Source: Betaproteobacteria bacterium (GTDB lineage: Bacteria; Pseudomonadota; Gammaproteobacteria; Burkholderiales; JACQAP01). Taken from it: a stretch of 64,000 nucleotides of DNA. The notes below the pieces were generated by a model. It saw only the letters and a program-made list of their open reading frames with translations, made no database searches and was not told where the DNA came from. The translations under genes and the position numbers were made by a program. How positions within the stretch are numbered: position 1 is the first letter of the stretch; each line of letters starts with the position of its first letter. Where the stretch lies: positions 564 to 64,563 of the forward strand of contig JBDTRK010000005.1 of the NCBI GenBank assembly GCA_039931685.1. The letters are read 5' to 3'. Positions 985 through 58,351 of the stretch are shown in pieces.

Positions 985-1010
985 TCCATGGATTTGGTTA
1001 AACTAGCGCC

Positions 1011-2214: not shown

Positions 2215-2221
2215 AGCGGAA

Positions 2222-3390: not shown

Positions 3391-3405
3391 CGGGGAAACG
3401 AACGC

Positions 3406-4194: not shown

Positions 4195-4197
4195 GGG

Positions 4198-4623: not shown

Positions 4624-4666
4624 TTTTCCTCCCCAACGATCAGGGAATCAGAATAGCACGGTGGCT

Positions 4667-5308: not shown

Positions 5309-5332
5309 TTTTTCTGCCCTGGTCTGCGCCTT

Positions 5333-6727: not shown

Positions 6728-6732
6728 CGGCT

Positions 6733-7905: not shown

Positions 7906-7917
7906 CGGATCGCGCCT

Positions 7918-8898: not shown

Positions 8899-8959
8899 GC
8901 GATCCTTATGGTTTCAGAAAATACAGACAGGGAAATTATAGCCGAGAGACGCCGGGCGC

Positions 8960-9865: not shown

Positions 9866-9886
9866 ATTTTTCGTTATCCGGTTAAA

Positions 9887-41820: not shown

Positions 41821-41830
41821 ATCCGGGAAA

Positions 41831-41940
41831 ACCGTGAATATCGTGAATGCCGTGAATGCCGTAACGGCTCCAGATCGCTACCCACGCATTCTCGACATTC
41901 ACGAATTCACGACATTCACGGAATTCACATGATTCACGAC
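41831..41940. repeat. palindromic repeat element built of 9-bp-periodic CGTGAAT / ATTCACG heptamers
   Basis: CGTGAAT at 41833, 41842 and 41851. ATTCACG (or ATTCACA) at 41897, 41905, 41914, 41923 and 41932. Central core CGTAACGGCTCCAGATCGCTA. The last copies overlap the ATG at 41929. Confidence 0.7.
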
Positions 41941-43191: not shown

Positions 43192-43193
43192 AT

Positions 43194-44693
43194 ATGGGCA
43201 TGCCCGTACTGCTTTCGTCGGAGACTTTTCAGCCCCACGTCGGGCACGCCGACCTGGTCGCGCAGCTGACTGCTGTGCTGCCGCCGGCGAGCCTGTTGCA
43301 CGAGCAAGAAGATCTCAGGCCCTTCGAGTGCGACGGCATGACCGCCTATCAGCGCATGCCGCTGATGGTGGCGCTGCCGGAAACCGAAGACCAGGTGCGC
43401 GACGTGCTGCGCATCTGCCACAGGGGCCACGTGCCGGTGGTGTTCCGCGGCGCCGGCACCGGGCTGTCGGGCGGCGCCCTGCCCTACGCGCAGGGCCTGC
43501 TGCTGGTGATGGCGAAGATGAAGCGCATCGTCGGCATCGATCCCGTCGCGCGAACCGCGCGCCTGCAACCTGGGGTGCGCAATGCGGCGATATCGGAAGC
43601 GGCCGCGCCTTACGGCCTTTACTACGCACCCGACCCGTCCAGCCAGATCGCCTGTTCCATCGGCGGCAACGTCGCCGAGAATTCCGGGGGCGTGCATTGC
43701 CTGAAGTATGGCCTGACGGTCCACAACATCCTGAAACTGCGCTTCGTCACCATCGACGGCGAATTGCTCGAGATCGGCTCGGAGGGCCTCGACGCGCCGG
43801 GTTATGACCTGATGGCGCTGATCACCGGTTCCGAGGGCATGCTCGGCGTGGTCACCGAAATCACCGTCAAGCTACTGCCGAAGCCGGAGAAAGCCCAGGT
43901 CGTGTTGGCCGCATTCGACGATGTCGGCAAGGCCGGCCAGGCGGTGGCGGGCGTCATCGCCGCCGGCATCATTCCGGCCGGGCTGGAAATGATGGACAAG
44001 AAAGCCACCGCCGCAGTTGAACAATTCGTGCACGCGGGCTACCCGCTCGACGCCGCGGCCATCCTGCTGTGCGAATCCGACGGCACGGCCGAGGAGGTCG
44101 CCGACGAAATCGCGCGCGTCAAGCAAGTCATGACGCGCGCCGGCGCAACTGAGATCCGCACGTCGCGCGACGAGTCCGAGCGGCTGAAATTCTGGGCCGG
44201 ACGCAAGGCAGCCTTTCCGGCGGTGGGCCGCATATTGCCGGACTATTACTGCATGGACGGCACCATCCCGAAGAAACAACTGCCTCACGTCCTCAAGCGC
44301 ATCGACGAGCTGTCGGCGCAGTTCAACCTGCAGTGCGCCAACGTTTTTCATGCCGGCGACGGCAACCTGCATCCGCTGATCATGTTCGACGCCAACGAAG
44401 GCGACCAGAACGAGCGCGCCGAAGCCTATGGCGCGGCAATCCTGGAACTTTGCGTCGAAGTCGGTGGCACGATTACCGGCGAGCACGGTGTCGGCATCGA
44501 AAAAATAAACCAGATGTGCGTGCAGTTCAATACCGGCGAATTGAATACCTTCCACGCGGTGAAGAAAGTATTCGACGAACATGGCCTGCTCAATCCCGGC
44601 AAGGCCGTGCCGACGCTGCAACGCTGCGCCGAATTCGGCGCCATGCACGTGCACCGCGGACAAGAGAAGTTTCCCGATTTGCCGCGCTTCTAA
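43194..44693 (+). CDS. glcD: glycolate oxidase subunit GlcD (FAD-linked)
   Basis: Long identity runs to my memory of E. coli GlcD: RGAGTGLSGGALP, YYAPDPSSQIACSIGGNVAENSGGVHCLKYGLTVHN. Confidence 0.9.
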   Translation: MGMPVLLSSETFQPHVGHADLVAQLTAVLPPASLLHEQEDLRPFECDGMTAYQRMPLMVALPETEDQVRDVLRICHRGHVPVVFRGAGTGLSGGALPYAQGLLLVMAKMKRIVGIDPVARTARLQPGVRNAAISEAAAPYGLYYAPDPSSQIACSIGGNVAENSGGVHCLKYGLTVHNILKLRFVTIDGELLEIGSEGLDAPGYDLMALITGSEGMLGVVTEITVKLLPKPEKAQVVLAAFDDVGKAGQAVAGVIAAGIIPAGLEMMDKKATAAVEQFVHAGYPLDAAAILLCESDGTAEEVADEIARVKQVMTRAGATEIRTSRDESERLKFWAGRKAAFPAVGRILPDYYCMDGTIPKKQLPHVLKRIDELSAQFNLQCANVFHAGDGNLHPLIMFDANEGDQNERAEAYGAAILELCVEVGGTITGEHGVGIEKINQMCVQFNTGELNTFHAVKKVFDEHGLLNPGKAVPTLQRCAEFGAMHVHRGQEKFPDLPRF

Positions 44694-44704
44694 TTCAAAA
44701 TCTT

Positions 44705-44874
44705 GAACCACGGAGGACACAGAGGACACGGAATAAAAACATGAAGAATACGTAACGGGAAAACTGGCAGGTTGCTCCGGCAGATCGGGAGCCCGATCTA
44801 AATCGCCGCCTCCAGCGCTCCTGAAATCCGGGGTTCCCTTTTGTCCGCGGGTTTTTCCGTGTCCTCCGTGGTTC
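44705..44874. repeat. MITE/REP-like element: 20-bp terminal inverted repeat with 9-bp internal duplication
   Basis: Left arm GAACCACGGAGGACAC[AGAGGACAC]GGAA (44705-44733). Right arm TTCCGTGTCCTCCGTGGTTC (44855-44874). The interior shares CGTAACGG...CTCC...CAGATCG with the 41.8-kb element and has the hairpin AGATCGGG-agc-CCCGATCT. Confidence 0.75.
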
Positions 44875-44887
44875 CATCCTCTTTCCG

Positions 44888-45940
44888 ATGCAGGAAGTAA
44901 TCGAGCAATTTTCCGAAACCATCCGCAAAGCCGCCGCCGAGCGCACGCAATTGCGCATCCGCGGCAGTGGCAGCAAGGATTTCTACGGCCTGGTCCTCAT
45001 GGGCGACGTGCTCGATACGCGCGCCCTGACCGGCATTGTCGACTACGAGACCAGCGAACTGGTCGTTACCGCCCGCGCCGGGACACCGCTGCGCGACATT
45101 GAAGCGGCGCTGGCCCAGGGCGGCCAGATGCTGCCGTTCGAGCCGCCACACTTCGGCGCCGGCGCGACGCTCGGTGGTTGTGTCGCGTCCGGCTTTTCCG
45201 GGCCGCGCCGCGCCGCGGCGGGCTCGGTGCGGGATTTCGTGCTGGGCGTGCGTATTGTGAATGGCACGGGAGAAAATCTGCGCTTCGGCGGCCAGGTCAT
45301 GAAAAACGTCGCCGGCTATGACTTGTCGCGCGTGCTGACCGGATCCTTCGGAACCCTGGGACTCATCACCGAGGTATCGTTGAAAGTGCTGCCGATCCCG
45401 CCACAAGACCGCACGCTGCGCTTCGATCTGGGCGAAGCCGCGGCAATCGAGTCCATGAACAAATGGGCGGCCAGGCCGCTGACGCTGTCGGCAACCTGTT
45501 ACGTTGACGGTGCGCTGTATGTGAGGTTGTCGGGCGCAAGCGCCGCCGTCGCGGCATCGCACAGCAAGCTCGGCGGGGAAGTCGTCGAGAATGACGCGGC
45601 GTTCTGGCAGTCCATTCGCGAACAGACGCACGCTTTTTTCGCGAACGCGCCGGCCTTGTGGCGATTCTCGATCAAATCGACCGCCGCGCCACTCGGCCTT
45701 GGCAGCCAGATGATCGAATGGAACGGCAGCCTGCGCTGGGTTGCCGCCGATCTCGATCCGTCGGCGGCATTCGACATCGCGCACCGGGCGGGCGGCCACG
45801 CCACCTTGTTCCGCGGCGGCAACAAGCGCCACGGCATCCAGCAACTCGCACCGGGCTTGCTGGCCGTGCACAAGAAGCTCAAGCGTGCATTCGATCCCCA
45901 GGGCATTCTCGGTCCGGGACGCATTCATGCCGATTTCTAG
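44888..45940 (+). CDS. glcE: glycolate oxidase FAD-binding subunit GlcE
   Basis: 350 aa, LRIRGSGSKDFYG and GGQVMKNVAGYDL blocks, positioned between glcD and glcF. Confidence 0.85.
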   Translation: MQEVIEQFSETIRKAAAERTQLRIRGSGSKDFYGLVLMGDVLDTRALTGIVDYETSELVVTARAGTPLRDIEAALAQGGQMLPFEPPHFGAGATLGGCVASGFSGPRRAAAGSVRDFVLGVRIVNGTGENLRFGGQVMKNVAGYDLSRVLTGSFGTLGLITEVSLKVLPIPPQDRTLRFDLGEAAAIESMNKWAARPLTLSATCYVDGALYVRLSGASAAVAASHSKLGGEVVENDAAFWQSIREQTHAFFANAPALWRFSIKSTAAPLGLGSQMIEWNGSLRWVAADLDPSAAFDIAHRAGGHATLFRGGNKRHGIQQLAPGLLAVHKKLKRAFDPQGILGPGRIHADF

Positions 45941-45958
45941 CGATTACTGCCTGCGCCC

Positions 45959-46185
45959 AACACAGAGGCACAGATACCCTACGTGCGGAGCACGTCGGAG
46001 TTATGGTCGAAGACCGGTATCCCCCGGAACCCTTTTAGGACACGGAGAAGAACAGCGAGAACGTGAAGTCGAGGCAGCAGAGGCGTCGCAATTTTATTTT
46101 CTGCATTCTCACTCCATGAGCTTCATTTGACAATTGAGCATCCATCCGCATGACCTGTTTATTCTTTCTCCGTGCCTCTGTGTTG
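45959..46185. repeat. composite repeat element bounded by 13-bp inverted repeat AACACAGAGGCAC
   Basis: AACACAGAGGCAC at 45959-45971 and GTGCCTCTGTGTT at 46173-46185. The interior contains CCCTTTTAGGACACGGAG, related to the arm of the 44.7-kb element. Confidence 0.6.
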
Positions 46186-46199
46186 CGAAGCTGACTTAA

Positions 46200-49455
<3,256 letters not shown>

Positions 49456-50072: not shown

Positions 50073-50597
50073 TCAGGGCGTGTGCGCGGGCCCCGGGCTG
50101 ATTGCCGTCAGGATGCCTTGCATGAGCGCCAGCGGTGTGGGGGGACAGCCGGGTACTGCAACATCCACGGGAATTACATTGGCGATGCGCCCGCAGCTCG
50201 CATAACTCTCGCCGAAAATTCCGCCTGTGCAACCACAATCCCCCACTGCGACAACCAGCTTGGGCTCGGGCGTGGCGTCATAGGTGCGCCGCAGGGCGGT
50301 CATCATGTGGCGGGACACCGGCCCCGTAACCAGCAACATGTCCGCATGCCTGGGGCTGGCGACGAAGTGGATACCCAGACCTTCGAGGTTGTAGTAGGGA
50401 TTGGTCAATGCATGGATTTCGAGTTCACAGCCGTTGCAGGAGCCCGCGTCGACATGGCGTATCGCCAGCGACCCATTGAACGTCGCGAGGACTTCGCTTT
50501 GCAGTCGCTGCACGGCGACGCGCAAGTTTTCGTCGGCCTGCGACGGCGCTTCCGTTCTGATTCCCGAGCTTACGATGAGCTTGATCGTCTGGTACAT
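50073..50597 (-). CDS. NuoB/HycG/HyfI-like small subunit (EhrS-like)
   Basis: VDAGSCNGCELEI, ASPRHADMLLVTG, GDCGCTGGIF and VPGCPP. Ligands for one [4Fe-4S] cluster are retained. Confidence 0.85.
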   Translation of the reverse strand: MYQTIKLIVSSGIRTEAPSQADENLRVAVQRLQSEVLATFNGSLAIRHVDAGSCNGCELEIHALTNPYYNLEGLGIHFVASPRHADMLLVTGPVSRHMMTALRRTYDATPEPKLVVAVGDCGCTGGIFGESYASCGRIANVIPVDVAVPGCPPTPLALMQGILTAISPGPAHTP

Positions 50598-50612
50598 GAT
50601 GATTTGGCCTTC

Positions 50613-52154
50613 CTACAGGTCATGCCCGCTATAGCTCAGATTGAGTGACTTGTTGATCAGCGGAAAGTCCGGCACGATGTTTCCAATGACTGCATGTTCC
50701 AGCAGCGGCCAGTTTTGCCAGGATGGATCATGCGGATGCACCCGACGGATCCCGCCTGCCGCATCGGTATGGATGGCAATGAGGATCTCGCCGCGCCAGC
50801 CTTCTATCCAGCCCACGCCGAAGGCATCCCGCGGCGCTTCCGGCAGCGGCATGAAGACCGGGCCATCAGGTATCCGTTCCAGAATCTGCCGGCAAAGGCG
50901 GATGGCCTCGGCAACCTCCTCGAAACGTACGGTCACGCGCGCAGCCACGTCGCCCGCCTGACGCGTCGCGATGCGCACGTCGAGCCGATCGTAAGGTGCC
51001 GACGGAAAATCCACGCGCAGGTCCACCGCTTGCGCACTCGCGCGTCCGGCCAATCCGGTCAGGCCCAGCCGTGCGGCCAGTTCGGGCGTGATGCGCCCCG
51101 CTTCCATGAACCGGTCCTGCAGACCTGCGTGGTCGTCGTAAATGCCGCGCAGGCGCGCCACTGATTTTTCGATCGCTTCGAGGGCTGCGAACTGCTCGCT
51201 GATGCCGGCGCGGTCGAGGTCGGCAGCGACGCCTCCGGGAACGATCGCATCCATCAGGTAGCGGTGTCCGAACAGCCCGGCATTGGCACGAAGCAACTGT
51301 TCCTTGAGACTCGAGAACTGGGCCAGGCCGAAAGCGAACCCGGCATCGTTGCCCAGGGCACCGAGATCCCCCAGGTGGTTCGCGATGCGTTCGCGCTCCA
51401 GCATCAGGGCACGCAGCCAAAGCGCCCTGTCAGGCGCGGATATTGCGCTCAGGTTCTCCACCGCCATTGCGTAGGCCCACGCATAGGCGACGGTGGAATC
51501 GCCACTGATGCGGCCCGCCAGGCGGGCGCCCTGCTGGAGCGTCATCGCCTCGAATCGTTTCTCGATCCCCTTGTGCGTGTAGCCCAATCGCTCTTCCAGG
51601 CGCAGCACGCGCTCGCCGATGACGGAGAAGCGGAAATGTCCCGGTTCGATGGTTCCAGCGTGGACCGGACCGACCGCGACTTCGTGCACGCCGTCTCCCT
51701 CGACGGCAACAAATGCATAATTGTCCGGCGCGGATGCATGGACCATAGATGCATCGACATCGCTGCGCAGCGGAAACCGGTCGGCCGGCCACGCGCCGTG
51801 GCGCAACCACGGGCGTTTATCCGGTTGGCCGGCCGCCTCGAGCCCCATCAGGTCCGCAACCGCCCGCTGCATGCGGTTCGCCACCGGGAAAATGTCGGCG
51901 ATGCCGGGATAGACTTCGTTCCTTACCGGCAGCGTCAGACAGACCAGCCCGGACCGACTGACAAGCGCGGCATGCACCGCAAATGCGAAACCACCCGGGC
52001 GCCGGTCGCTCGCCCATAACGCGAGCAGACGCCCGCCGCGCCGGCGCACCTGCTCGCACAGGCGCCGCCAGCCGGCCTCATCGACCTCGGCCTGCCAGGC
52101 CGCAACCGCGCCCGGCAGCGGATCGAACTCGAATTCGATATCTTCCACGCGCAC
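50613..52154 (-). CDS. fused NuoC-NuoD / HycE-HyfG-like large subunit lacking [NiFe] ligands (EhrL-like)
   Basis: The FPVANRMQRAVADLMGLE, GPVHAGTIEPGHFRF and LGYTHKGIEKRF blocks are intact. The Cys motifs are replaced by RISGDSTVAY and C-terminal SLNLSYSGHDL. Confidence 0.85.
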   Translation of the reverse strand: MRVEDIEFEFDPLPGAVAAWQAEVDEAGWRRLCEQVRRRGGRLLALWASDRRPGGFAFAVHAALVSRSGLVCLTLPVRNEVYPGIADIFPVANRMQRAVADLMGLEAAGQPDKRPWLRHGAWPADRFPLRSDVDASMVHASAPDNYAFVAVEGDGVHEVAVGPVHAGTIEPGHFRFSVIGERVLRLEERLGYTHKGIEKRFEAMTLQQGARLAGRISGDSTVAYAWAYAMAVENLSAISAPDRALWLRALMLERERIANHLGDLGALGNDAGFAFGLAQFSSLKEQLLRANAGLFGHRYLMDAIVPGGVAADLDRAGISEQFAALEAIEKSVARLRGIYDDHAGLQDRFMEAGRITPELAARLGLTGLAGRASAQAVDLRVDFPSAPYDRLDVRIATRQAGDVAARVTVRFEEVAEAIRLCRQILERIPDGPVFMPLPEAPRDAFGVGWIEGWRGEILIAIHTDAAGGIRRVHPHDPSWQNWPLLEHAVIGNIVPDFPLINKSLNLSYSGHDL

Positions 52155-52164
52155 GACGGCTTTC

Positions 52165-53613
52165 CTATCCGATCAATCTCGCCGCCTGGCGATACCAGTC
52201 GGCGAGATACGGTGGTATGAACAGTCCGAGCAGCAACACCAGCGCGAGATGCACGAATACAGGGATCAACGCCGGCGGGTGCGGCAGTCGTTTGCCTGAA
52301 GTCTCGCCGAACACCATCGTCTGCACCTTGCCGAACACGGCGGCAAAGGCGACCCCGAGCGCAACCAGCAGGATCGGTGTCGCCCAGGGATGCTCATGCA
52401 TCGCCGTTGTCAAAATCAGGAACTCGCTGGCGAACACGCCAAATGGCGGTATGCCCAGAATGGCAAGACTGCCGAGCATCAATCCCCAGCCTATTGTGGG
52501 ATTGGTGACGACCAGCCCGCGGATGTCCGCGATCAGTTGCGTACCGCTTTTCTGTGCCGCATGACCGACCGTGAAAAATATCGCCGACTTGGTTAGCGAA
52601 TGAACTGTCATATGCAGCAGCGCGGCGAATGTGGCGACCGCGCCTCCCATGCCGAAGGCAAAGGTGACGATGCCCATGTGCTCGATCGACGAGTAGGCGA
52701 AGAGCCGCTTGACATCCTTCTGGCGCGACAGGAAGAAAGCCGCCACCACGACGCTGAACAGACCGAAACCCATCATCAGGTTCCCCGCGACTCCATTCTG
52801 CAAGGCGCCGTCGACCAGCACTTTGGTACGCACCACGGCATACAGCGCGACGTTGAGCAGAAGCCCGGACAGCACGGCGGAAACCGGCGTCGGACCCTCG
52901 GCATGCGCGTCGGGCAACCAGCTATGCAGCGGCGCGAGGCCCACTTTGGTGCCGTAGCCGACCAGCAGGAAGACAAATGCCAGCGACACTACCGTCGGCT
53001 CCAGTTGTCCCTTGACTTCGTTCAGGTGCGTCCACAGCAGCGCATTGCCGCCCGCCCCGAGCACTTTCTCCGCGGCAAGGTAAAGCAGGATCGTTCCGAA
53101 CAGCGCTTGCGCAATGCCGACTCCGCAAAGGATAAAATACTTCCAGGCGGCCTCGAGACTCGCGGGCGTTCGATACAGACTCACCAGCAGGACTGTCGTC
53201 AGCGTGGCAGCCTCCATCGCCACCCAGAGGATGCCCAGATTGTTGGTGAGCAGTGCCAGCAACATGGTGAACATGAACAGCTGGAACATGCTGTGATAGA
53301 GCCGCAAACGCGCCGGGGTGAGCTTGCCCGCGTGCTGTTCGTTGCGCATGTAGGGAAGGCTGAACAACGATGTCGTGAAGCCGACGAACGCGGTGAGGGC
53401 AACGAGGAACACGTTGAAGGAATCCACAAAGAACATTTCGCCAAGCACCCGGATCGGCCCCTCGCCGACGATTCTGGCGGTCAAAACGGCTGCAGCGGCG
53501 AGCGTCAGGAAGCTCATGACCGCGCTCAACTCTCCGGCGCGATCCTTATGCCCGTACAAGGCCAGCAGGAGCCCGCCGGCGAGCGGCATGCCGAGCAGTA
53601 CGATCAGTTCCAT
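52165..53613 (-). CDS. NuoN/HyfF-like antiporter-type membrane subunit
   Basis: ATG at 53613 (MELIVLLGMPLAGG). Mrp/NuoLMN-type blocks (WLPDAHAEGPTPVSA). The track start at 54165 is an extension across the upstream gene. Confidence 0.8.
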   Translation of the reverse strand: MELIVLLGMPLAGGLLLALYGHKDRAGELSAVMSFLTLAAAAVLTARIVGEGPIRVLGEMFFVDSFNVFLVALTAFVGFTTSLFSLPYMRNEQHAGKLTPARLRLYHSMFQLFMFTMLLALLTNNLGILWVAMEAATLTTVLLVSLYRTPASLEAAWKYFILCGVGIAQALFGTILLYLAAEKVLGAGGNALLWTHLNEVKGQLEPTVVSLAFVFLLVGYGTKVGLAPLHSWLPDAHAEGPTPVSAVLSGLLLNVALYAVVRTKVLVDGALQNGVAGNLMMGFGLFSVVVAAFFLSRQKDVKRLFAYSSIEHMGIVTFAFGMGGAVATFAALLHMTVHSLTKSAIFFTVGHAAQKSGTQLIADIRGLVVTNPTIGWGLMLGSLAILGIPPFGVFASEFLILTTAMHEHPWATPILLVALGVAFAAVFGKVQTMVFGETSGKRLPHPPALIPVFVHLALVLLLGLFIPPYLADWYRQAARLIG

Positions 53614-53615
53614 CG

Positions 53616-54278
53616 TCAGCGTTCCTTGAGTTTTTCCAGGTGCCGGGTGTCGAGGCTGTCGAACGTTTCCCGGATCTGGAAAAAGAAAATGCCGAAAATG
53701 AAGGTTCCAACCAGGACGTCCAACGCGACGCCGAGCTCGACGACCATGGGCATGCCGTAGGTAGCGCTGGTGGCGGCGAAGAACAACCCGTTCTCCATTG
53801 CCAGGAAGCCCACGACCTGCGGGATGGCCTTGCGCCGCGTGATCATCATCAGGAAAGACAACAGCACGCAGGCGATGGCCACGCCCAGAGAGTGACGCGT
53901 AACGGTACTTGCCTGCTCGGATATCGGCAACGCCAGATTGAGGGAAAAGATCACCACGACGATTCCGATCATCATCGTCGTCGGAATATTGATCAGGGTT
54001 TCCCTGTCCCATTTCACGTTCAGCCGAATGATCAGCCGATGCAGTATCCAGGGCAGCGCAAACACCTTGAGAACCACGGTCAGAACGGCCGAATAATACA
54101 GATGATGCTGGCCCGTGCTGTAAGCGACGACAGCCGTGCTGACCGAGAGAACGAGTCCTTGCCACGCAAACAGATAAACCAGCGACAGGACGCGGCGTTG
54201 CGACAACATGGCGAACGCTATCAGCAGCAAAAGTGCCGCCAGCACGTTGATCAGCTGTCCGGAAAAGGATGGGGGCAT
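53616..54278 (-). CDS. HyfE-like small membrane subunit
   Basis: ATG at 54278. About 7 TM helices in 220 aa. Its position and size equal HyfE, and the block GFLAMENGLFFAA is typical. Confidence 0.7.
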   Translation of the reverse strand: MPPSFSGQLINVLAALLLLIAFAMLSQRRVLSLVYLFAWQGLVLSVSTAVVAYSTGQHHLYYSAVLTVVLKVFALPWILHRLIIRLNVKWDRETLINIPTTMMIGIVVVIFSLNLALPISEQASTVTRHSLGVAIACVLLSFLMMITRRKAIPQVVGFLAMENGLFFAATSATYGMPMVVELGVALDVLVGTFIFGIFFFQIRETFDSLDTRHLEKLKER

Positions 54279-54279
54279 G

Positions 54280-55224
54280 TCAGCGCTCCAACGCCAGCCG
54301 GACCAGGATGCCCAGAACCGCCAGCAGGAAAGCGGTGCCGAGGAATTCGGGTGCGCGAAAGATGCGCAGCTTCGCCGACAGCGTTTCAACGAGCGCGAGC
54401 CCGGCCCCGCCCACAAGCAGCTTTAATGACAGCGCGACCAGCGCCAGCGGCATGAGCAGCCAGTCTCCGGCCGTCACGATTCCCCAGGGCAGGAACAGGG
54501 CGATGCCAATGGCACTGTAGTTCAACAGCTTCATCGCCGACGCCCACTCGATTAGCGCCAGATGCCGCGCGGAATACTCGAGCGTCATCGCCTCATGAAT
54601 CATCGTCAGTTCCAGGTGCGTCGCCGGATTGTCGACGGGAATACGCGCGTTCTCGGCGAGCGCGACCATGTAAAAGGCGACCGCCGCGAAAGCGAGACTG
54701 GGATAGAGCACGAATTCGCGATGTGCGATGGTCTCGACGATCGTGGTAAGCGAAGTCGACTGGGCGATCAGGACCGGCGTGAACAACACCATCAGTAACG
54801 CGGGCTCGGCCAGGCAGGCCACCAGCATTTCGCGGCGCGCCCCCATGCTGCCGAATGCGGTGCCTACATCCATCGCCGCCAGCGCCGCGAACAGGCGGGC
54901 AAGTGCAAACAGCCCCACCAGCGCAATCACGTCCGCCGCCGCCGAGAAAGCCAGGTCGGTCGCCAGAATGGGGACGATGCTGGCGACGAGCATCATGCAT
55001 CCGAATTGCAGATAGGGCGCCATCCTGAACAGGGACGACGCGTGCTCTGCAAGCACCGCATCCTTGTGGAAGAGCTTGTGCAACACCCGGTACGGCTGCA
55101 ATACGCCGGCACCACTCTTGTTCTGCAGCCACGCGCGGCATTGGTTGACCCATCCCAGCAAAAGGGGCGCCAACGCGACGATGAGCACGGTCTGCAGCGC
55201 CTGCGAAAGAAGGGACTGGATCAT
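54280..55224 (-). CDS. NuoH/HycD/HyfC-like membrane subunit
   Basis: ATG at 55224 in an ATGA overlap with the upstream stop. Block ENARIPVDNPATHLELTMIHEAMTLEYS is typical of HycD/NuoH. Confidence 0.8.
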   Translation of the reverse strand: MIQSLLSQALQTVLIVALAPLLLGWVNQCRAWLQNKSGAGVLQPYRVLHKLFHKDAVLAEHASSLFRMAPYLQFGCMMLVASIVPILATDLAFSAAADVIALVGLFALARLFAALAAMDVGTAFGSMGARREMLVACLAEPALLMVLFTPVLIAQSTSLTTIVETIAHREFVLYPSLAFAAVAFYMVALAENARIPVDNPATHLELTMIHEAMTLEYSARHLALIEWASAMKLLNYSAIGIALFLPWGIVTAGDWLLMPLALVALSLKLLVGGAGLALVETLSAKLRIFRAPEFLGTAFLLAVLGILVRLALER

Positions 55225-57233
55225 CGAATGAAGAACAACAGAATGATCAAGGTGGCGAAGCTGTACATGAGATAAATATTGATGCGGCCGTGTTGCAGAA
55301 TGCCGATGGCTGCGGAAAGCCTCTCCACAAGGCGGGCCACCGGCAGGTAGAGCGCGTACCACAACTTGTCTTCGACGATGCCGTGGTAACGGGGGCGATC
55401 GTCGAACGGACTCGGCACCTGACGGTCGATACGGAAGATCGGCTCGAAAATCTGCTTGATCGGTTGGCCGAAGCCCTCGGCGGTATCCTGCATGCGTGCC
55501 GTTTGCTGGGGGAAACCACAGTCCCACGCGGGTCCACGGCGCACGCGGCCATGATAAAGCTTGCGCACCAGAACCACCGAAAGCATCAACGCACCGGCAA
55601 TTCCAATTAAAAACAGGAGCGGGCTGTAACTCGAGCGCTGCGCTGACGTGGCCGTGATGAACAGCCATGACTGGGCGCCGGCCGCTCCGACGATCTCCCC
55701 GGTCAACATTTGGGTCGTCTTGCCCAGCGCGGCAAGCACCCAGACGGGGGCAAGCCCCAGCACGACGCAGCCCGATGCCAGCCAGCCCAGTCCCAGCCGC
55801 TCTGGCCAATTGGCGTCGTGGGCCTCCGCGAGCTTCGCCTCACGCGGCCGTCCCAGAAAAATGACACCGTAGAATTTGACCATGACATACCCGGCGAGCG
55901 CGACAGCAAGAACAAAGGCGGCCGAACCAACCGGAACCAGCATGCTCAGGTAAGAACTCGGCAGGCCCGGCGTGGCCAGAAATGCCTGCAGCAGCAGCCA
56001 CTCCGATACGAATCCGTTGAGCGGCGGCAGGCCGGCGATGGCAATGGTGCCGACCAGGCCGAGCCATGCGACCCACGGCATGCTGCGGATCAACCCTCCC
56101 AACTTGCCCAGGCTCCGCTCCCTGGTCGAGTGCAGAACGGTCCCGGTCACGAGGAACAGCAGACTCTTGAAAAATGCGTGATTGAGGCAGTGATACAGCG
56201 TTCCGGCCAGGGCAAGCGCGGCGAGGGCGTTTGCCTCGTAGACATGGAAAATCAGCGTCAGGCCGACGCCCGCCAGAATGATGCCCATGTTCTCGATGGA
56301 GGAATACGCCAGCAGGCGCTTCATGTCGGTCTGCACGGCGGCGAACATGACCCCGAACAATGCCGTCATCAGGCCCAATGTCGTCGCCAGCACACCCCAC
56401 CAGACCAGTTGAATCTGCAGCAGGTCAAAGGTCACCCGCAACAATCCATAGATTGCCGTCTTCAGCATTACGCCGCTCATCAATGCCGAGATCGGCGACG
56501 GAGCGGCCGGATGGGCTTCGGGCAGCCAGGCATGGACCGGCAGAAATCCGGCTTTGGCGCCAAACCCGAACAAGGCCAGCAGAAATGCCGCACTCGCCCA
56601 GAAATGATCGAGGTGGCTCGCCCTCATGGTCGCGAAAGTGTAATCGCCGTGCCCGCCCTGCATCACTCCAAAGCACAGCAGAATGCCGATCGCACCGATA
56701 TGCGCCAGCAACAGGTAAAGGAAACCGGCGCTTCGGATCGCCGGAATCTTGTGGTTGCTGATGACCAGGAAATAGGATGCGAGTGCCATCGTTTCCCACG
56801 CGACCATGAACAGGTAGGCGTCGTCCGCAAGCATGACGGCCGTCATCGCAACAAGAAATAGGTGGTACTGCAGGCAGTGCAATCCGGGCGCAGTGCCTTC
56901 GCCCGCGCGGAAGTAGCCTGCGGAATAAATGGAAATACCGGCCGAGGCCCCTCCCAGCAGCACCAGGAAAAAAGCCGACAGCGCATCCAGCCGCATATGG
57001 AAGGGAAGATCGGGCAGGCCCAGCGCGAGAACAGCCGTCTGCGGAACGTCGCCCAGGCCGACAAGGCCGGCGCCGGCAAGGACCAGCGAGGCCACAGCAC
57101 TCGCCGGAAACAGCATGTGCGCGATGAAGCGCAGGTTATGCGGCGCGGCGAGCCCGAGGAACCCGGCGACCATCCAGAATACGATGACGCCGAGCACCAC
57201 GTCCAACGGCAGAACCTGCGTCAGGCCCATCAT
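55221..57233 (-). CDS. NuoL/HycC/HyfB-like antiporter-type membrane subunit
   Basis: 670 aa. WETMALASYFLV, WLPEAHPAAPSPISALMSG, and a long C-terminal extension as in HyfB. Confidence 0.85.
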   Translation of the reverse strand: MMGLTQVLPLDVVLGVIVFWMVAGFLGLAAPHNLRFIAHMLFPASAVASLVLAGAGLVGLGDVPQTAVLALGLPDLPFHMRLDALSAFFLVLLGGASAGISIYSAGYFRAGEGTAPGLHCLQYHLFLVAMTAVMLADDAYLFMVAWETMALASYFLVISNHKIPAIRSAGFLYLLLAHIGAIGILLCFGVMQGGHGDYTFATMRASHLDHFWASAAFLLALFGFGAKAGFLPVHAWLPEAHPAAPSPISALMSGVMLKTAIYGLLRVTFDLLQIQLVWWGVLATTLGLMTALFGVMFAAVQTDMKRLLAYSSIENMGIILAGVGLTLIFHVYEANALAALALAGTLYHCLNHAFFKSLLFLVTGTVLHSTRERSLGKLGGLIRSMPWVAWLGLVGTIAIAGLPPLNGFVSEWLLLQAFLATPGLPSSYLSMLVPVGSAAFVLAVALAGYVMVKFYGVIFLGRPREAKLAEAHDANWPERLGLGWLASGCVVLGLAPVWVLAALGKTTQMLTGEIVGAAGAQSWLFITATSAQRSSYSPLLFLIGIAGALMLSVVLVRKLYHGRVRRGPAWDCGFPQQTARMQDTAEGFGQPIKQIFEPIFRIDRQVPSPFDDRPRYHGIVEDKLWYALYLPVARLVERLSAAIGILQHGRINIYLMYSFATLIILLFFIR

Positions 57234-57490
57234 TACGCAGTTCGCGGTGGAACAGACGGCGTCATCGGGCCGACTCGCCGACGACGGTCAGACAACCCGC
57301 GATGTGGATTACTACGGCGGCGGTGGCGATCCGAACCGGCGCATCCTCCCTCGCACCGGACCCGCAATCGTGCTGCCTTCCCGCACCGACGGATCCGCAA
57401 TCAGCGCCTGCGTCACCTGGAAGTGATCGGGGTTGCGTCGGGACGCCGACTCTTCCGGTTCGGGACGGCCTAGATTCACCCATGTCTAAG

Positions 57491-57511
57491 TGTACGCCCA
57501 TTTCATGTACA
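57491..57511. promoter_or_regulatory. candidate operator in the divergent region between the RHH gene and the ehr-like operon
   Basis: TGTAC-N11-GTACA in the only AT-rich patch of the spacer. No consensus was matched. Confidence 0.25.
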
Positions 57512-57578
57512 TTCAAGACAACATCAAGCATCTCTGATTACGATATCATGAACATACAATATTTTTCGGAGCCCTGCC

Positions 57579-57782
57579 GTGGAAAACAAGACCGGCCGTT
57601 TGACTTTACTCATCGATCCGAGAAAGAAGCAGATATTCGAGGAGATCTGCTCGGAACGGGACCTGACGCCATCGCAAGTCGTGCGCCAACTGATTCGCGA
57701 GTACATCATCGAATATGCGGGAAACCGGAAGCTACCCCCCTGGCTCGTGAATGCAGCGACAAGGAGCAAGCGCAAGGATTAG
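57579..57782 (+). CDS. ribbon-helix-helix (CopG/Arc-like) protein
   Basis: GTG start. RLTLLIDPRKKQIFEEICSERDLTPSQVVRQLIREYI has the beta-strand/helix/helix pattern of RHH repressors. Basic tail. Confidence 0.55.
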   Translation: MENKTGRLTLLIDPRKKQIFEEICSERDLTPSQVVRQLIREYIIEYAGNRKLPPWLVNAATRSKRKD

Positions 57783-57988
57783 CGCGCGCCGTCCGGGGAA
57801 AACGCGCGCAAGGACGGATAACTAGAGAAGGGGTAAATTATCGAACCGGCGGGCCGCCAGAATTTCTTCAAAACTTTCCCCGGAGACGATCGACGCCTGC
57901 CGACACATTGATCGAATCGGCCAGGCCGTTCTGCAACACTGACCCGCCTGCCTGACGCAGGCGTCTGGCCCTGTCCGGACCGCGAAAA

Positions 57989-58351
57989 TTACCTGGCCGG
58001 CTGCTTTAATTCGACGATCACGACGTCGGTGTCGCTGTCGCCAATGTTTTCGCCGATATGGGTCTGGCCCTTCATGAATATCACGTCGCCGGCCTTGAAC
58101 TCGCGGTTCATCGACTTTCCGTCGGGGAATGTCAGCTTGCGCTTGAAGGAGCTCAGCGCGTAGAGAACGAAGTCCGGATGCTCGTGCATGTTGGTCTTGT
58201 CGCCGGGCTTGTCATGATATTCGAGCACGCGCACGCGTTCGTTCTCGATTCGCAGCTTGTATTTGTCGGCGTCCGTATCCAGCGGGTCCGCGGCATGGCC
58301 GACGCCCGCTGCCAAAAGGAAAAGGCCTGCGATCACAACGGCTGGATTCAT
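57989..58351 (-). CDS. exported cupin-domain protein
   Basis: Signal peptide, then the cupin motifs NMHEHPDFVLY and GDVIFMKGQTHIGEN. Confidence 0.7.
   Translation of the reverse strand: MNPAVVIAGLFLLAAGVGHAADPLDTDADKYKLRIENERVRVLEYHDKPGDKTNMHEHPDFVLYALSSFKRKLTFPDGKSMNREFKAGDVIFMKGQTHIGENIGDSDTDVVIVELKQPAR

Follow-up and report, generated by a model that had tools for sequence, protein, structure and literature searches.

Organization of the operon

The window, by which we mean the whole 64-kb stretch of DNA that was analyzed, contains an operon of six tightly packed genes on its minus strand at positions 50073-57233. The ORF reading of the sequence gives the order ehrA-B-C-D-L-S. The genes and the region upstream of them are as follows:

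55221..57233, minus strand: ehrA, hyfB/nuoL-like antiporter-type subunit, 670 aa (Proton_antipo_M, 2e-51)
54280..55224, minus strand: ehrB, hyfC/hycD/nuoH-like subunit, 314 aa (NADHdh, 2e-33)
53616..54278, minus strand: ehrC, hyfE-like, NuoK/J-related small membrane subunit, 220 aa (NCBIfam 'hydrogenase 4 membrane subunit', 1e-27)
52165..53613, minus strand: ehrD, hyfF/nuoM/N-like antiporter-type subunit, 482 aa (Proton_antipo_M, 5e-55)
50613..52154, minus strand: ehrL, fused NuoC+NuoD / HycE-like large subunit, 513 aa, GTG start (Complex1_30kDa and Complex1_49kDa)
50073..50597, minus strand: ehrS, NuoB/HycG-like small subunit with no NuoI-like domain, 174 aa (Oxidored_q6, 6e-31)
57234..57578, minus strand: upstream non-coding region, presumed promoter/operator from its position

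All ORFs lie where a first-pass annotation of this DNA had placed them, with the same lengths and gaps. The ATGA overlap at 55221-55224, which joins the ehrA stop and the ehrB start, can be read directly from the sequence (...ttcgATGAtcc...), and the remaining intergenic gaps are 1, 2, 10 and 15 nt. Pfam and NCBIfam back all six subunit assignments (E-values from 1e-31 to 1e-265), in agreement with the HyfBCEFGI-like identities proposed earlier. A 345-bp gap with an AT-rich stretch separates ehrA from a divergent RHH_9 gene; it contains no sigma-70 consensus and gave no Rfam match.

Several genes expected of a hydrogenase or of complex I were not found in the 64-kb window, as had been claimed for NuoI/HycF, HyfA, formate dehydrogenase, NuoEFG and hyp/hycI. 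Pfam scans of essentially all long ORFs gave no hyp, hycI, fdh, nuoEFG, nuoI, hyfA or molybdopterin genes, and motif scans for HypA/B/C/D/E and HycI were also negative. Neither method found nif or hyqR-like genes. Only two CxxCxxCxxxC motifs occur in the window, both in GlcF (46272, 46422). These absences apply to the window rather than to the genome, and ORFs under ~200 aa were screened by motif alone.

Identity and known relatives

The operon almost certainly encodes the energy-converting-hydrogenase-related (Ehr) complex, in a minimal form with a short small subunit, which descends from a group-4 (Hyf/4f-type) [NiFe]-hydrogenase. The sets ehrABCDLS, hyfBCEFGI-like and hyqBCEFGI-like are the same cassette, which is already named and widespread. 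Descriptions of Ehr date from 2005-2013 onward and cover Geobacter, Cupriavidus, Acidithiobacillus, Nitrospira and Azorhizobium, among others; no function had been assigned as of 2023, and both the six-gene composition and the lost CxxC motifs have been published (PMC6688271, PMC2864759, PMC7735108, PMC4378227, PMC3357923, PMC10284858). We fetched 212 loci with this gene order, drawn from more than 15 phyla, and Ehr is present in CPR bacteria (PMC7304191). The nearest database relative of the window, from an uncultured Burkholderiales MAG, is 90% identical.

Subunit types and order match those of ehrABCDLS in Geobacter sulfurreducens (GSU0739-45), Methylacidiphilum, Nitrospira, Sulfobacillus and CPR bacteria, where the large subunit likewise lacks the NiFe CxxC motifs and the small subunit is NuoB-like (PMC7894505, PMC6688271, PMC10284858, PMC4378227, PMC7304191). 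A role in pH homeostasis was proposed for the Methylacidiphilum genes (PMC6688271). In contrast to the 174-aa EhrS of the window, small subunits of the Geobacter type, such as the 259-aa one of Geomonas (L149), carry a HycF/NuoI-like 2x[4Fe-4S] domain at the N-terminus (9e-15 to 7z0s_F). Geobacter-type Ehr also has an HTH_17+PTS_EIIA_2 regulator upstream, whereas the window has only the divergent RHH_9 gene. Regulators of this type (15 loci) and of the ArsR type (13 loci) are dedicated to other Ehr clades, and are not redox enzymes.

Six-gene cassettes like that of the window are also found as hyfBCEFGI in Cupriavidus metallidurans (Rmet_4666-71), C. necator H16 (H16_A2196-2201), Acidithiobacillus ferrooxidans and Burkholderia, although in other species and clades and with unrelated flanking genes. 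The large subunit of the Burkholderia cepacia complex (P0122) is 54% identical to EhrL of the window, with the signature AGDS...NKSFNLNYAG. These betaproteobacterial or acidithiobacillial sets carry hydrogenase-4 subunit annotations, and the literature describes them as incomplete or as non-hydrogenases (PMC2864759, PMC7735108).

Escherichia coli Hyc (PDB 7Z0S) and Hyf (group 4a/4f [NiFe]-hydrogenases) give the closest matches in sequence and fold, and share the HyfB/C/E/F/G/I subunit types. However, these enzymes have NiFe ligands, HycF/HyfH, HycB/HyfA, FdhF and HyfD, all of which are missing in the window, as is the C-terminal extension for HycI processing. HycE and HycD, rather than NuoD and NuoH, are the closest counterparts of EhrL and EhrB. 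Complex I/NDH-1 and Mbs (Mbx) have the NuoB-NuoCD-NuoH core and the antiporter-like TM5 Glu, TM7 Lys and TM12 Glu/Lys in common with Ehr, and Mbs is likewise a hydrogenase relative that is a hydrogenase no longer. Compared to complex I and Mbs, Ehr is without quinone ligands, NuoI/MbsN, NuoA/J and an N-module; Mbs, for its part, has retained both an Mrp module and a NuoI-like subunit.

A conserved pocket without NiFe or quinone ligands

In line with the earlier claim that no catalytic metal is evident, none of the four [NiFe] cysteines is present in EhrL, where residue mapping places S217, S220, S507 and G510 at these positions. The complex-I quinone ligands His38 and Tyr87 (Nqo4 numbering) are also both lost, their places being taken by I169 and G218. 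The top PDB sequence match is HycE (2e-57). The AF2 model of EhrL (pTM 0.82) has 7z0s_E as its closest fold (TM 0.82), with low confidence precisely in the loops of the pocket (141-195 and 478-513).

The pocket residues H165, E170, H173, S217, G218, D219, S220, S507, G510 and D512 are invariant or nearly so, as are the motifs R-[VI]-S-G-D-S-T and NKS-F-N-L-S-Y-S-G-x-D-L in 76 clade sequences. The signature RxSGD[STEN]...NKSFNLSY[SA]G.DL occurs in ~65 of 87 full-length 50%-cluster representatives, and D219 in 94% of 165 sequences, a set that includes some true hydrogenases. Judging from this conservation, the replaced pocket is under strong purifying selection.

Loss of the catalytic cysteines and of the NuoI-like module might suggest that Ehr is an evolutionary relic, a decayed and non-functional hydrogenase operon. 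The Hyf subunits of A. ferrooxidans indeed went undetected in the proteome during growth on H2 (PMC7735108). Yet, the six ORFs are intact here and in sufficiently long fetched loci, with few apparently split or missing genes (e.g. L069, L156); their order does not vary, and translational coupling between them seems likely. Moreover, replacement and ion-pathway residues are invariant across phyla, and all Ehr subunits were detected in Geobacter (PMC7894505). A phmmer search gave 7376 matches (E <= 1e-3) among 50%-identity cluster representatives, a number that mixes Ehr with true group-4 hydrogenases and complex-I NuoD. Because the replacement residues are nearly invariant, Ehr is not a decaying hydrogenase; given the conservation data, a relic is close to refuted and extremely improbable.

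The first-pass annotation had held that this copy would be a decayed hydrogenase if other strains had a NuoI-like gene or hyp genes next to an intact Cys-containing large subunit. Six-gene 4f-like operons with true Cys4 sites do exist (L111, L112, L114, L105), and those of Thermincola (L111) and Desulfotomaculum (L112) have a NuoI-like domain fused to the small subunit. However, the latter two belong to other phyla and are only ~40% identical to the operon of the window, and so lie at long evolutionary range. The form in the window is hydrogenase-descended but not recently decayed, with its own invariant replacement residues over hundreds of species.

Alternatively, Ehr might be a non-canonical hydrogenase. 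The 'endo-hydrogenase' Hyq (hyqRBCEFGI) of Azorhizobium caulinodans and other alphaproteobacterial diazotrophs has the same layout as the window, with six structural genes, a 504-aa NuoC::D fusion in which both CxxC motifs are lost, a four-Cys small subunit of the NuoB type, and no NuoI (PMC3357923); the link between the two consists of features matched to the published description of Hyq. Deletion of hyq removed ~80% of the microaerobic H2 evolution of A. caulinodans, also in a nifK background (PMC3357923). The alphaproteobacterial relatives that we fetched have the gene order of the window and a short small subunit of 171-194 aa. One 504-aa representative (P0136) is 49% identical to EhrL and has Cys at both C-terminal positions reported as conserved in HyqG (Cys-491, Cys-497). 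Furthermore, the hydrogenase-type EPGHFR motif with E170 is retained in EhrL. Conversely, EhrL has no metal-binding thiolates left, and we know of no hydrogenase chemistry that runs with Ser, Asp or Gly at the NiFe-ligand positions. The two additional conserved C-terminal Cys of Hyq (LCNKSFNCSYSG) are replaced by I500 and L506 in the window, and Hyq further differs in having a hyqR activator and NifA control. A NiFe centre is 'uncertain, if not unlikely' in the words of the Hyq authors themselves; the H2:quinone activity that they claim is putative, and the H2 effect was measured in vivo and could be indirect. HydDB places the A. ferrooxidans homologue as a non-hydrogenase (PMC7735108). Hence, we consider a hydrogenase function unlikely.

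Stepwise loss of Fe-S clusters

The earlier proposal of a single [4Fe-4S] site in the small subunit is borne out by C54 and C57 (SCNGCE), C121 (GDCGC) and C151 (PGCPP), which fall on the HycG and MbhJ cluster ligands in alignments and are kept in 72 of 72 sequences of the window's clade. The PDB matches of EhrS (MbhJ, 2e-37; HycG, 9e-36) start only at residue 29/39. Its N-terminus aligns with the start of NuoI-NuoB fusions, followed by one deletion across both Fe-S motifs. Thus, the short EhrS looks like the fusion form with the Fe-S domain excised.

Among the 71 Cys-less loci whose small subunit was identified, about a third (25) have a full N-terminal NuoI-like 8-Cys (2x[4Fe-4S]) fusion, which this analysis adds to the published descriptions. 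This domain is partly decayed in 10 loci, the extension is almost without Cys in 6, and 30 have no N-terminal NuoI-like extension at all. The electron wire is, by this comparison, dispensable within the family. Even the last cluster can be lost: its ligands are present in 69 of the 77 small subunits sampled from diverse loci (L081-L164), ~90% of lineages, and missing in 8, namely the CPR lineages L138, L151 and L162, and L143, L130, L084, L158 and L156. Three of these (L084, L158, L156) retain the NuoI-like domain without N2 ligands, and therefore the wire is broken there. Where subunits were extractable (several were not at some loci), the key residues tested in subunits A to D and in the pocket of L persist in the cluster-less loci, with two positions substituted. 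Loss of the last cluster with ion-pathway residues and pocket kept is likewise added by this analysis. Judging from the ligands lost, Ehr of these lineages cannot be an oxidoreductase, and its pocket is conserved regardless.

The main rival to the mechanism proposed below is a redox-coupled pump with a directly docking partner, which we regard as possible but doubtful. A low-potential carrier (ferredoxin, flavodoxin or similar) would dock on EhrS at the former place of NuoI/HycF, and the single [4Fe-4S] would exchange electrons with it and, in the pocket of EhrL/EhrB, reduce or oxidize a quinone or some small substrate. This reaction would drive ion pumping or be run in reverse by the pmf, as in Rnf or photosynthetic NDH-1. 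The N2-type ligands, invariant in the clade and kept in most diverse loci, argue for such a pump; the mapped deletion should expose that face of EhrS; and the complete 8-Cys domain of many relatives suggests that ancestral Ehr was still wired. By analogy with QB-type sites, a pocket lined by Ser, His and Asp could in principle take a quinone head group. In addition, hyq of A. caulinodans belongs to the nif regulon, with NifA-dependent induction, and its loss slows diazotrophic growth (PMC2650096), which fits a supply of low-potential reductant. However, the neighborhood of the cassette in 164 loci shows no conserved gene for a donor, acceptor or partner, the canonical quinone ligands are gone, and EhrB is HycD-like, not NuoH-like. 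The pocket is equally conserved in lineages without Fe-S ligands, the wire is broken in the three loci above, and some genomes with Ehr are ones for which a complete pathway of quinone biosynthesis could not be identified (PMC6349859).

Another explanation, the 'FDH-Ehr' idea, might be that Ehr serves as membrane module to a soluble dehydrogenase, for formate or another substrate, that is encoded in trans and feeds EhrS. Genomes of Margulisbacteria and Saganbacteria have both Ehr and a formate dehydrogenase with NuoE/F-like genes (PMC6349859), every Geobacter Ehr subunit was more abundant on formate (PMC7894505), and a role in formate metabolism was proposed for A. ferrooxidans Hyf (PMC7735108). 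Nevertheless, this association is very unlikely. Its own authors presented it as a hypothesis, genes for fdh, molybdopterin or NuoE/F are neither found in the window nor conserved near the cassette in L001-L164, and the cluster-less lineages raise the same objections as for the redox pump.

Membrane subunits and proposed ion translocation

The membrane subunits retain the charged residues of an ion pathway, with at least 96% conservation across bacterial and archaeal phyla. EhrA (880 bits to NCBIfam 'hydrogenase 4 subunit B', cut-off 667) keeps E147, K227, K258, H348, H352, K356 and E411 in at least 96% of 117 sequences from many phyla. EhrD (869 bits to 'hydrogenase 4 subunit F', cut-off 543) is the best-conserved subunit (75-88% identity in L001-L080), more so than EhrL, and conserves E134, K223, H230, H334, H338, K342 and E397; Asn254 occupies the TM8 Lys position of MbsH and MbhH in 103 of 127 sequences. 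EhrB, with HycD (7z0s_D, 8e-40) as its top PDB relative and NuoH at only ~1e-6, has D119, R131, E132, E140, E191, D198, H203, E205, H210 and E211 at least 96% conserved. EhrC scores 97 bits to the HyfE-like NCBIfam model, under its cut-off of 136, with a weak Oxidored_q2 match; K71 and E162 are invariant, and E181 and D187 96-98% conserved.

NuoI-domain fusions and cluster loss, with pathway and pocket kept, favor a redox-independent (or cluster-gated) cation/proton transporter, to which we tentatively assign a probability of about 0.4; the genomic context is suggestive of the same. The conserved job of Ehr would be ion translocation without electron transfer via the peripheral arm. Antiporter-like EhrA and EhrD, EhrB with its NuoH-like E-channel and NuoK-like EhrC would build an intact charged-residue pathway, and EhrL/EhrS would cap EhrB at the former NiFe or quinone site. 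There, thiolates have given way to oxygen donors (Ser217, Asp219, Ser/Thr/Glu/Asn220, Ser507) near Glu170, His165 and His173, a chemistry that may suit a proton relay or a hard-cation (Na+/K+/Mg2+) site. Ehr could thus act as a pmf-coupled cation/proton antiporter or ion-homeostasis device, Mrp-like in function, and the [4Fe-4S] of the window's clade, instead of being a wire, as a gate sensitive to redox state or O2, or as a structural element. Gene content, residue replacements, conservation patterns and the stepwise Fe-S loss across lineages are seen directly in the sequences, whereas we infer that Ehr binds cations and acts by antiport, and what its cluster does. The Mrp Na+/H+ antiporter is proposed as a functional analogy: it combines MrpA/D-type subunits with a NuoK-like partner, requires no redox input, and its MrpD (7qru_D) matches EhrD at 1e-21. 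Ehr is not a member of the Mrp family, as it lacks MrpB/E/F/G homologues, and its NuoH-like subunit and cytoplasmic NuoB/CD cap have no equivalent in Mrp.

Some observations run counter to such a transporter. The cation site in the pocket is a predicted one, and the Mrp-specific subunits are missing. Invariant [4Fe-4S] ligands in the window's clade would also be expected from a redox function, and the cluster-less lineages may have switched function, so that their bearing on this clade is by extrapolation. The formate response of Geobacter is a further point (PMC7894505). Finally, the only six-gene Cys-less complex with genetics is Hyq of A. caulinodans (PMC2650096, PMC3357923), and these genetics point to redox or H2 chemistry over simple antiport.

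Assignment of the operon

Our analysis re-found the six minus-strand reading frames of the first-pass annotation exactly, in both position and length:

55221–57233, minus strand: ehrA, 670 aa, Proton_antipo_M (Pfam/NCBIfam)
54280–55224, minus strand: ehrB, 314 aa, NADHdh
53616–54278, minus strand: ehrC, 220 aa, HyfE-like
52165–53613, minus strand: ehrD, 482 aa, Proton_antipo_M
50613–52154, minus strand: ehrL (large subunit), 513 aa, Complex1_30kDa and Complex1_49kDa
50073–50597, minus strand: ehrS (small subunit), 174 aa, Oxidored_q6 (6e-31)

The operon order is thus ehrA-B-C-D-L-S, with NuoL-like, NuoH-like, HyfE-like and NuoN/M-like membrane subunits. The stop codon of ehrA and the start codon of ehrB have an ATGA in common, and the other intergenic gaps measure 1, 2, 10 and 15 nt. 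Chance is no issue for the subunit assignments, because the E-values range from 1e-31 to 1e-265.

The first-pass annotation had interpreted these genes as two antiporter-like subunits coupled to a single-cluster module without an evident redox partner or catalytic metal. This interpretation is supported by our results. However, the operon is a further member of the known and named Ehr/Hyq family (Ehr, energy-converting-hydrogenase-related complex), recognisable at once to a specialist, and no new kind of system. The reported lack of NuoI/ferredoxin, input-module and hyp genes likewise holds for the window, according to Pfam, Cys-motif and HypA-E/HycI motif scans. The NuoI, NuoA and NuoJ subunits that characterize complex I (Nuo/NDH-1), and the NuoEFG subunits that it needs for NADH use, are missing from the operon and from the window as a whole. 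Scans for HypA-E and HycI motifs gave nothing credible, and neither hyp maturation genes nor the endopeptidase were found within the 64 kb. Ferredoxin-type Cys motifs occurred only twice in all six frames of the window, both times in GlcF (46200–47459, plus strand). We rejected GlcF as a trans-encoded ferredoxin subunit, since it has CCG domains and is encoded, on the opposite strand, within a glcDEF glycolate oxidase cluster.

The founding descriptions of Ehr are reportedly those of Coppi in 2005 and Marreiros et al. in 2013 (BBA 1827:198). The gene names ehrABCDLS are taken from a study of Methylacidiphilum, where a role in pH homeostasis was suggested (PMC6688271). Six-gene hyfBCEFGI sets of C. 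metallidurans (Rmet_4666-71) and C. necator H16 (H16_A2196-2201) were called 'incomplete' (PMC2864759), and the same six-gene sets have been recorded in Nitrospira (PMC5596200). A literature search by locus tag for omics or Tn-seq data on H16_A2196-2201 returned only the CH34 genome paper. Ehr is also carried by CPR bacteria (PMC7304191) and by Sulfobacillus, in a study that gives the function of the family as unknown (PMC4378227). The catalytic subunit of the A. ferrooxidans set is a non-hydrogenase according to HydDB (PMC7735108). A study of 2023 treats Ehr as a relative of the Hyf/4f-type hydrogenases without CxxC motifs and states that 'their function remains unknown' (PMC10284858).

Public names for the Ehr genes disagree. 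EhrA and EhrD both exceed the curated NCBIfam cut-offs for 'hydrogenase 4 subunit B' (880 versus 667 bits) and 'hydrogenase 4 subunit F' (869 versus 543 bits), respectively. The large subunit is called 'NADH-quinone oxidoreductase subunit C' by NCBI, 'HypE' in some records and 'Ni,Fe-hydrogenase III large subunit' by JGI, and genome papers have deduced H2 or formate metabolism from such names. Knowledge of Ehr function would correct the very common misannotation as 'hydrogenase 4' that stems from the NCBIfam equivalogs.

Distribution and gene order

A scan of 185,579 species genomes with a back-translated pattern from the window's EhrL yielded at least 582 relatives. The best 80 of these (L001–L080) share 56–70% identity in EhrL and come mostly from Betaproteobacteria, including Sulfuriferula, Sulfuricella, Gallionella, Sideroxyarcus and Burkholderiales MAGs. 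Every long-enough locus among them has the order A-B-C-D-L-S, and EhrD is 75–88% identical, as against only 56–70% for EhrL. The closest protein to the window's EhrL in a set of 5.8 billion sequences, with 90% identity, belongs to a Burkholderiales MAG. A phmmer search with EhrL against 1.84 billion 50%-identity representatives gave 7376 matches (E <= 1e-3), of which 1132 were below 1e-30; the 7376 also take in true group-4 hydrogenases and complex-I NuoD.

A second scan, with an alignment of 32 diverse Cys-less large subunits, returned 80 loci from many phyla. These comprise Methanosarcinales, Methanomassiliicoccales, Rokubacteria/Methylomirabilota, Nitrospirota, Omnitrophota, Chloroflexota, Verrucomicrobiota, Acidobacteriota, Planctomycetota, Bacillota, Desulfobacterota (Geomonas), Gemmatimonadota, CPR and Paraburkholderia. 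In the diverse loci the gene order is either A-B-C-D-L-S, which is also found in alphaproteobacteria, or S-A-B-C-D-L. Altogether, the Cys-less loci that we fetched span more than 15 phyla and include aerobes (Burkholderia, Cupriavidus, Nitrospira, rhizobia). Of the relatives of complex I that await characterisation, Ehr is one of the most widespread, and the question of its function is about 20 years old.

Some genomes carry tandem double cassettes. L050 has a divergent C-D-L-S set (1–4413; 36–54% identity) just upstream of the main A-B-C-D-L-S genes. In L083 (Thermoplasmatota, 339–9991) and in L122 and L161 (Nitrospirota, whole loci), the first set is followed by another, which is partial or complete.

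The former active site of EhrL

The best PDB-chain match of EhrL in phmmer was E. coli HycE (7z0s_E, 2e-57), followed by Nqo4, MbhL and NuoD. This agrees with the description of the Ehr large subunit as a NuoC+NuoD/HycE fold homologous to the large subunits of group-4 [NiFe]-hydrogenases. An AF2 model built from a 43-sequence alignment (pTM 0.82) also had HycE 7z0s_E as its best fold match (TM 0.82/0.79), followed by fused NuoCD chains. The model yields no pocket geometry, because pLDDT is below 50 in both pocket-forming segments (141–195 and 478–513).

Group-4 hydrogenases (Hyc/Hyf; 4a, 4f) bind NiFe with four Cys ligands, whereas the window's protein lacks them. In the alignment, the HycE segment R-V-C-G-I-C-G-F-A-H lies opposite R215-I-S-G-D-S-T-V-A-Y, and D-P-C-Y-S-C lies opposite N-L-S507-Y-S-G510. 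Both NiFe-binding CxxC motifs (RxCGxCxxxH; DPCxxCxxH/R) are absent, and since Ser217, Ser220, Ser507 and, at the fourth position, Gly510 stand opposite the ligand Cys, all four NiFe cysteines are gone. Large subunits of group-4 hydrogenases carry a cleavable C-terminal extension; the window's EhrL ends three residues beyond the motif position. The quinone ligands of complex I are absent as well, as His38 and Tyr87 of T. thermophilus Nqo4 fall opposite I169 and G218 when residues are counted along the alignment. Conversely, EhrL has kept the hydrogenase-type segment G-P-x-H-x-x-x-x-E-P-G-H-F-R, which contains Glu170; together with His165 and His173, this residue flanks the former NiFe site.

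The replacement residues are themselves conserved, as called from alignments across the loci. Among 76 sequences of the window's clade, little or no variation is seen in R-[VI]-S-G-D-S-T, G-P-V-H-A-G-x-I-E-P-G-H-F-R-F and N-K-S-F-N-L-S-Y-S-G-x-D-L. Asp219, between the first two former ligand positions, is conserved in Ehr and does not occur in hydrogenases, and position 220 is occupied only by O-donors (S, T, E, N) in most lineages. Judged by these alignments, Ehr is a sister or derivative of the Hyf/4f-type hydrogenases with its own conserved replacement residues, because about 65 of the 87 closest full-length 50%-identity representatives are Cys-less, with R-x-S-G-D-[S/T/E/N] and NKSFNLSY[SA]G.DL, beside 17–20 true Cys4 hydrogenases with RxCGxC and FELCYxC.DR.

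Graded loss of Fe-S sites in EhrS

The window's EhrS matched MbhJ and HycG, with only NuoB-type chains among its matches, and its four cluster Cys are present. In group-4 hydrogenases a HycF/NuoI-type 2x[4Fe-4S] relay leads to the small subunit; no such relay was found in the window by ORF and motif scans. Elsewhere in the family, however, the relay can be part of EhrS itself. Small subunits of 260–316 aa with both Fer4 and Oxidored_q6 occur in Ca. Aquicultor, a Thermoplasmatota archaeon and one JGI contig, and the 71 Cys-less loci with an identified EhrS show several forms. The length of the extension hangs on the choice of start codon (L145, for example, is possibly an over-extended ORF).

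Form of the small subunit in the 71 Cys-less loci with an identified EhrS
N-terminal extension with at least 8 Cys: 25 loci
Extension with 4–7 Cys: 10 loci
Extension with almost no Cys (at most 3), some possibly over-extended ORFs: 6 loci
Short, as in the window: 30 loci

In Geomonas, residues 8–102 of the extension match HycF (7z0s_F, 9e-15), MbsN, MbhN and NuoI, and the remainder matches MbhJ, HycG and NuoB, which identifies this protein as a NuoI-NuoB fusion. The same fusion is found in six-gene true hydrogenases of Thermincola (L111) and Desulfotomaculum (L112). The N-terminus of the window's EhrS, MYQTIKLIVSSGIRTE, aligns with the very start of the fused forms (MFHILKKAAQTGLVT...), a single in-frame gap then deletes both CxxCxxCxxxCP motifs, and the sequences realign at the helix preceding D-A-G-S-C-N-G-C-E. 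Because the N-termini align and one gap spans both motifs, the short EhrS is best read as a NuoI-NuoB fusion from which the Fe-S domain would have been excised. An intermediate state is seen in acidobacterial forms (L110, L098), whose first Fe-S motif is degraded.

The last cluster can be lost as well. Positions C54, C57, C121 and C151 are C-C-C-C in 69 of 77 small subunits from the diverse loci (L081–L164), and deviate in the other eight: L138, L151, L162 (CPR), L143, L130, L084, L158 and L156. The wire is therefore interrupted in L084, L158 and L156, which still have an 8-Cys NuoI-like domain although their cluster ligands are no longer C-C-C-C. Within the window's clade all four Cys are invariant (72/72), and here the cluster likely has a structural, sensory or redox role.

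The invariant cluster of the window's clade also speaks for the main rival of the reading that we prefer below, namely that Ehr is a redox pump on which ferredoxin or flavodoxin would dock directly, at the vacated NuoI site of EhrS. Two further points favour the redox pump: many relatives are still wired, and Hyq, the six-gene complex of Azorhizobium caulinodans, belongs to the nif regulon. On balance, we regard this explanation as unlikely.

Conservation of the ion pathway and proposed mechanism

We checked ion-pathway and pocket residues in the eight cluster-less loci, as far as subunits could be extracted (EhrD was not extracted in L158 and L156, EhrB in L084, and EhrC in L138, L130 and L156; the EhrA fragment from L156 has only 461 aa).

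Residues kept in the cluster-less loci
EhrA: E147, K227, H234, H241, K258, H348, H352, K356, E411
EhrB: D119, R131, E132, E140, E191, R194, D198, H203, E205, H210, E211
EhrC: K71, E162 (positions 181 and 187 substituted in three loci)
EhrD: E134, K223, H230, N254, H334, H338, K342, E397 (two substitutions: K397 in L143, Q334 in L084)
EhrL: H165, E170, H173, H194, S217, D219, S507, G510, D512 (L156 has G at 217)

The same residues are at least 93–100% conserved across 117–165 sequences. Since pathway and pocket are kept where clusters have been lost, we infer that the Fe-S relay is optional in the Ehr family, and that the ion pathway and the EhrL pocket are what selection maintains. With such conservation on record, the idea that Ehr is an evolutionary relic appears very improbable.

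The two antiporter-like subunits are not equivalent, as EhrD has Asn254 in 103/127 sequences, opposite the TM8 lysine of MbsH and MbhH, whereas EhrA keeps Lys258 in 116/117 sequences. Both resemble Mrp subunits in their Glu/Lys pathway (E147, K227, K258, K356 and E411 in EhrA; E134, K223, K342 and E397 in EhrD, with a match to MrpD 7qru_D at 1e-21). Mrp, however, has MrpB/E/F/G and no NuoH/NuoB/NuoD homologues, while the window operon consists of six Hyf-type genes only; Ehr therefore may work like Mrp, but is not a member.

Our preferred reading, to which we assign a probability of roughly 0.4, is that Ehr is a redox-independent or cluster-gated cation/proton transporter. The thiolate ligands of the former NiFe site would have been swapped for O-donors, changing a soft into a hard ligand set, and the hard-ligand site could serve as a proton relay or as a Na+/K+/Mg2+ site atop the E-channel of EhrB. 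A more specific version is less probable: the site, rebuilt from oxygen ligands (Ser217, Asp219, Ser/Thr/Glu/Asn220, Ser507, with Glu170 and His173), would bind a proton or cation in a cofactor-independent, pmf-coupled cation/proton transporter, and the cluster of the window's clade would act as a redox or O2 gate. In this version, Ehr would be a hydrogenase converted into an antiporter.

If this version is true, no other machine of the complex-I type would have been shown before Ehr to work with its NuoB/NuoD/NuoH coupling module in place but no redox reaction at all, and Ehr would offer a stripped-down model of how this module drives antiporter subunits. With a NuoB-NuoD-NuoH core and only two antiporter-like subunits, Ehr is the smallest natural complex-I energy-coupling machine, and to know what drives it would be of direct relevance to the dispute over how complex I couples its reactions. 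What is new here is that Fe-S sites are lost by degrees (excised, decayed, absent) within the family while pocket and ion pathway stay unchanged, which makes 'no redox needed' concretely testable. This handle comes from the family-wide pattern; the window alone adds none.

Comparison with Hyq

Hyq of A. caulinodans (hyqRBCEFGI) has been described as 'a core (6 subunit) version' of complex I (PMC2650096, PMC3357923). Its large subunit HyqG (504 aa) lacks either CxxC motif, and its small subunit has four Cys (PMC3357923). In line with this published description, the window has the hyqBCEFGI set, a Cys-less NuoC::D large subunit and a 4-Cys NuoB-like small subunit. The link between the window and Hyq consists of these matching published features, as a genome scan with an alphaproteobacterial large subunit (P0136) returned Acetobacteraceae only. 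The Acetobacteraceae loci L165–L212 have a short EhrS (171–194 aa) and a large-subunit C-terminus LCNKSFNCSYSGVDL, with two extra Cys 13 and 7 residues from the end that agree with Cys-491 and Cys-497, reported as conserved in HyqG; in the window's EhrL, in contrast, these positions are I500 and L506. Hyq also differs in having hyqR and NifA/sigma-54 control, whereas neither a sigma-54 activator nor a nif gene lies near the window operon. Control of the hyqR type is not general, because the GAFTGA motif of sigma-54 activators was found upstream in just 1 of 33 alphaproteobacterial loci.

Hyq is induced by NifA, and deletion of hyq slows diazotrophic growth (PMC2650096, PMC3357923). About 80% of the microaerobic H2 output needs hyq, also in a nifK mutant (PMC2650096, PMC3357923). 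Because this H2 phenotype outlasts the nifK mutation, an 'endo-hydrogenase' of the Hyq style keeps some weight. However, it offers no plausible metal site, the Hyq authors themselves calling a NiFe site 'uncertain, if not unlikely' (PMC2650096, PMC3357923), and we consider it improbable.

Neighbouring genes and regulators

None of the window's flanking genes is conserved in L001–L080, and the only recurrent neighbours in this clade are metG, apbC, dnaE and SulP. The diverse clades have regulators as their only recurrent neighbours. In 13 of the diverse loci the first ehr gene is directly preceded, on its own strand, by the gene of an ArsR-family (HTH_5/HTH_20) regulator of ~118 aa, which may link Ehr to metal(loid) or ion stress. 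A protein with HTH_17 and PTS_EIIA_2 (235 aa; EIIA-Ntr-like, GIAIPH motif) is encoded ~200 bp upstream of ehrA in 15 loci, Geomonas among them. Across 164 loci, no conserved redox partner stands beside the cassette; this counts, together with the weak support from the two regulator types, for the transporter reading. Coupling to a formate dehydrogenase (FDH), by comparison, draws on an FDH-Ehr hypothesis for Margulisbacteria and Saganbacteria (PMC6349859) and on Geobacter, where Ehr subunits (GSU0739-45) were detected at higher levels on formate (PMC7894505). We judge it less likely, indeed quite improbable. The remaining probability falls to something else.

The ArsR-type loci are L081, L082, L084, L086, L091, L093, L097, L102, L103, L109, L123, L132 and L137. 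Just downstream, L084 also carries genes for HTH_20, a methyltransferase, SBF (Acr3-like) and LMWPc (ArsC-like); in L081 there are HTH_5 and methyltransferase genes. The HTH_17/PTS_EIIA_2 gene is conserved before Ehr operons of the Geobacter/Planctomycete/Verrucomicrobia type (L116, L118–L120, L125, L131, L135, L136, L140, L141, L146, L149, L156, L163 and L164).

A CO2-hydration role like that of CupA or DAB was rejected, since there is no carbonic-anhydrase-like subunit or conserved neighbour; it is further disfavoured by the seemingly heterotrophic nature of the source organism.

Divergently from ehrA, across an AT-rich gap of 345 bp, the window encodes a small protein:

57579–57782, plus strand: 67-aa ribbon-helix-helix protein (Pfam RHH_9, 8e-31)

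Homologues with 55–73% identity adjoin ehrA directly upstream on the same strand in L075, L080, L068 and L064, and lie beside ehrA on the opposite strand in L060 and L051. Possibly, the RHH_9 protein is a dedicated ehr regulator. Between 49.3 and 58.6 kb, an Rfam scan gave one sub-threshold chance match only, and sigma-70 and terminator scans nothing usable.

Other features of the window

The other genes of the window have ordinary Burkholderiales-type functions. They encode a FemAB-like protein, an aromatic/phenylacetate-type oxygenase, a PQQ dehydrogenase, CorA, a MacB-type ABC efflux system, Amt, a T2SS ATPase, GGDEF/EAL proteins, a CoxE-like VWA protein, an AAA_5 ATPase, glcDEF with glycerate-pathway genes, an SDR, a Leu/Ile/Val-type binding protein, Edd/IlvD and UbiA. 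Two further features are:

40939–47459, plus strand: glyoxylate/glycolate utilisation cluster, unrelated to the ehr operon, with a 3-hydroxyisobutyrate-DH-like (tartronate semialdehyde reductase-type) gene, a DUF4147/MOFRL glycerate kinase-type gene, glcD, glcE and glcF
57989–58351, minus strand: ORF of 120 aa whose N-terminus (MNPAVVIAGLFLLAAGVGHA...) resembles a signal peptide, located between Edd/IlvD and the region upstream of ehr

Pfam gave no match for the 120-aa ORF, and the fetched loci contained no homologue.

The plus strand of the window shows a strong positive AT skew (0.17–0.25) at 52001–58000, which is limited to the genes of the four membrane subunits. The simplest explanation is that hydrophobic residues have T-rich codons on the minus (coding) strand.
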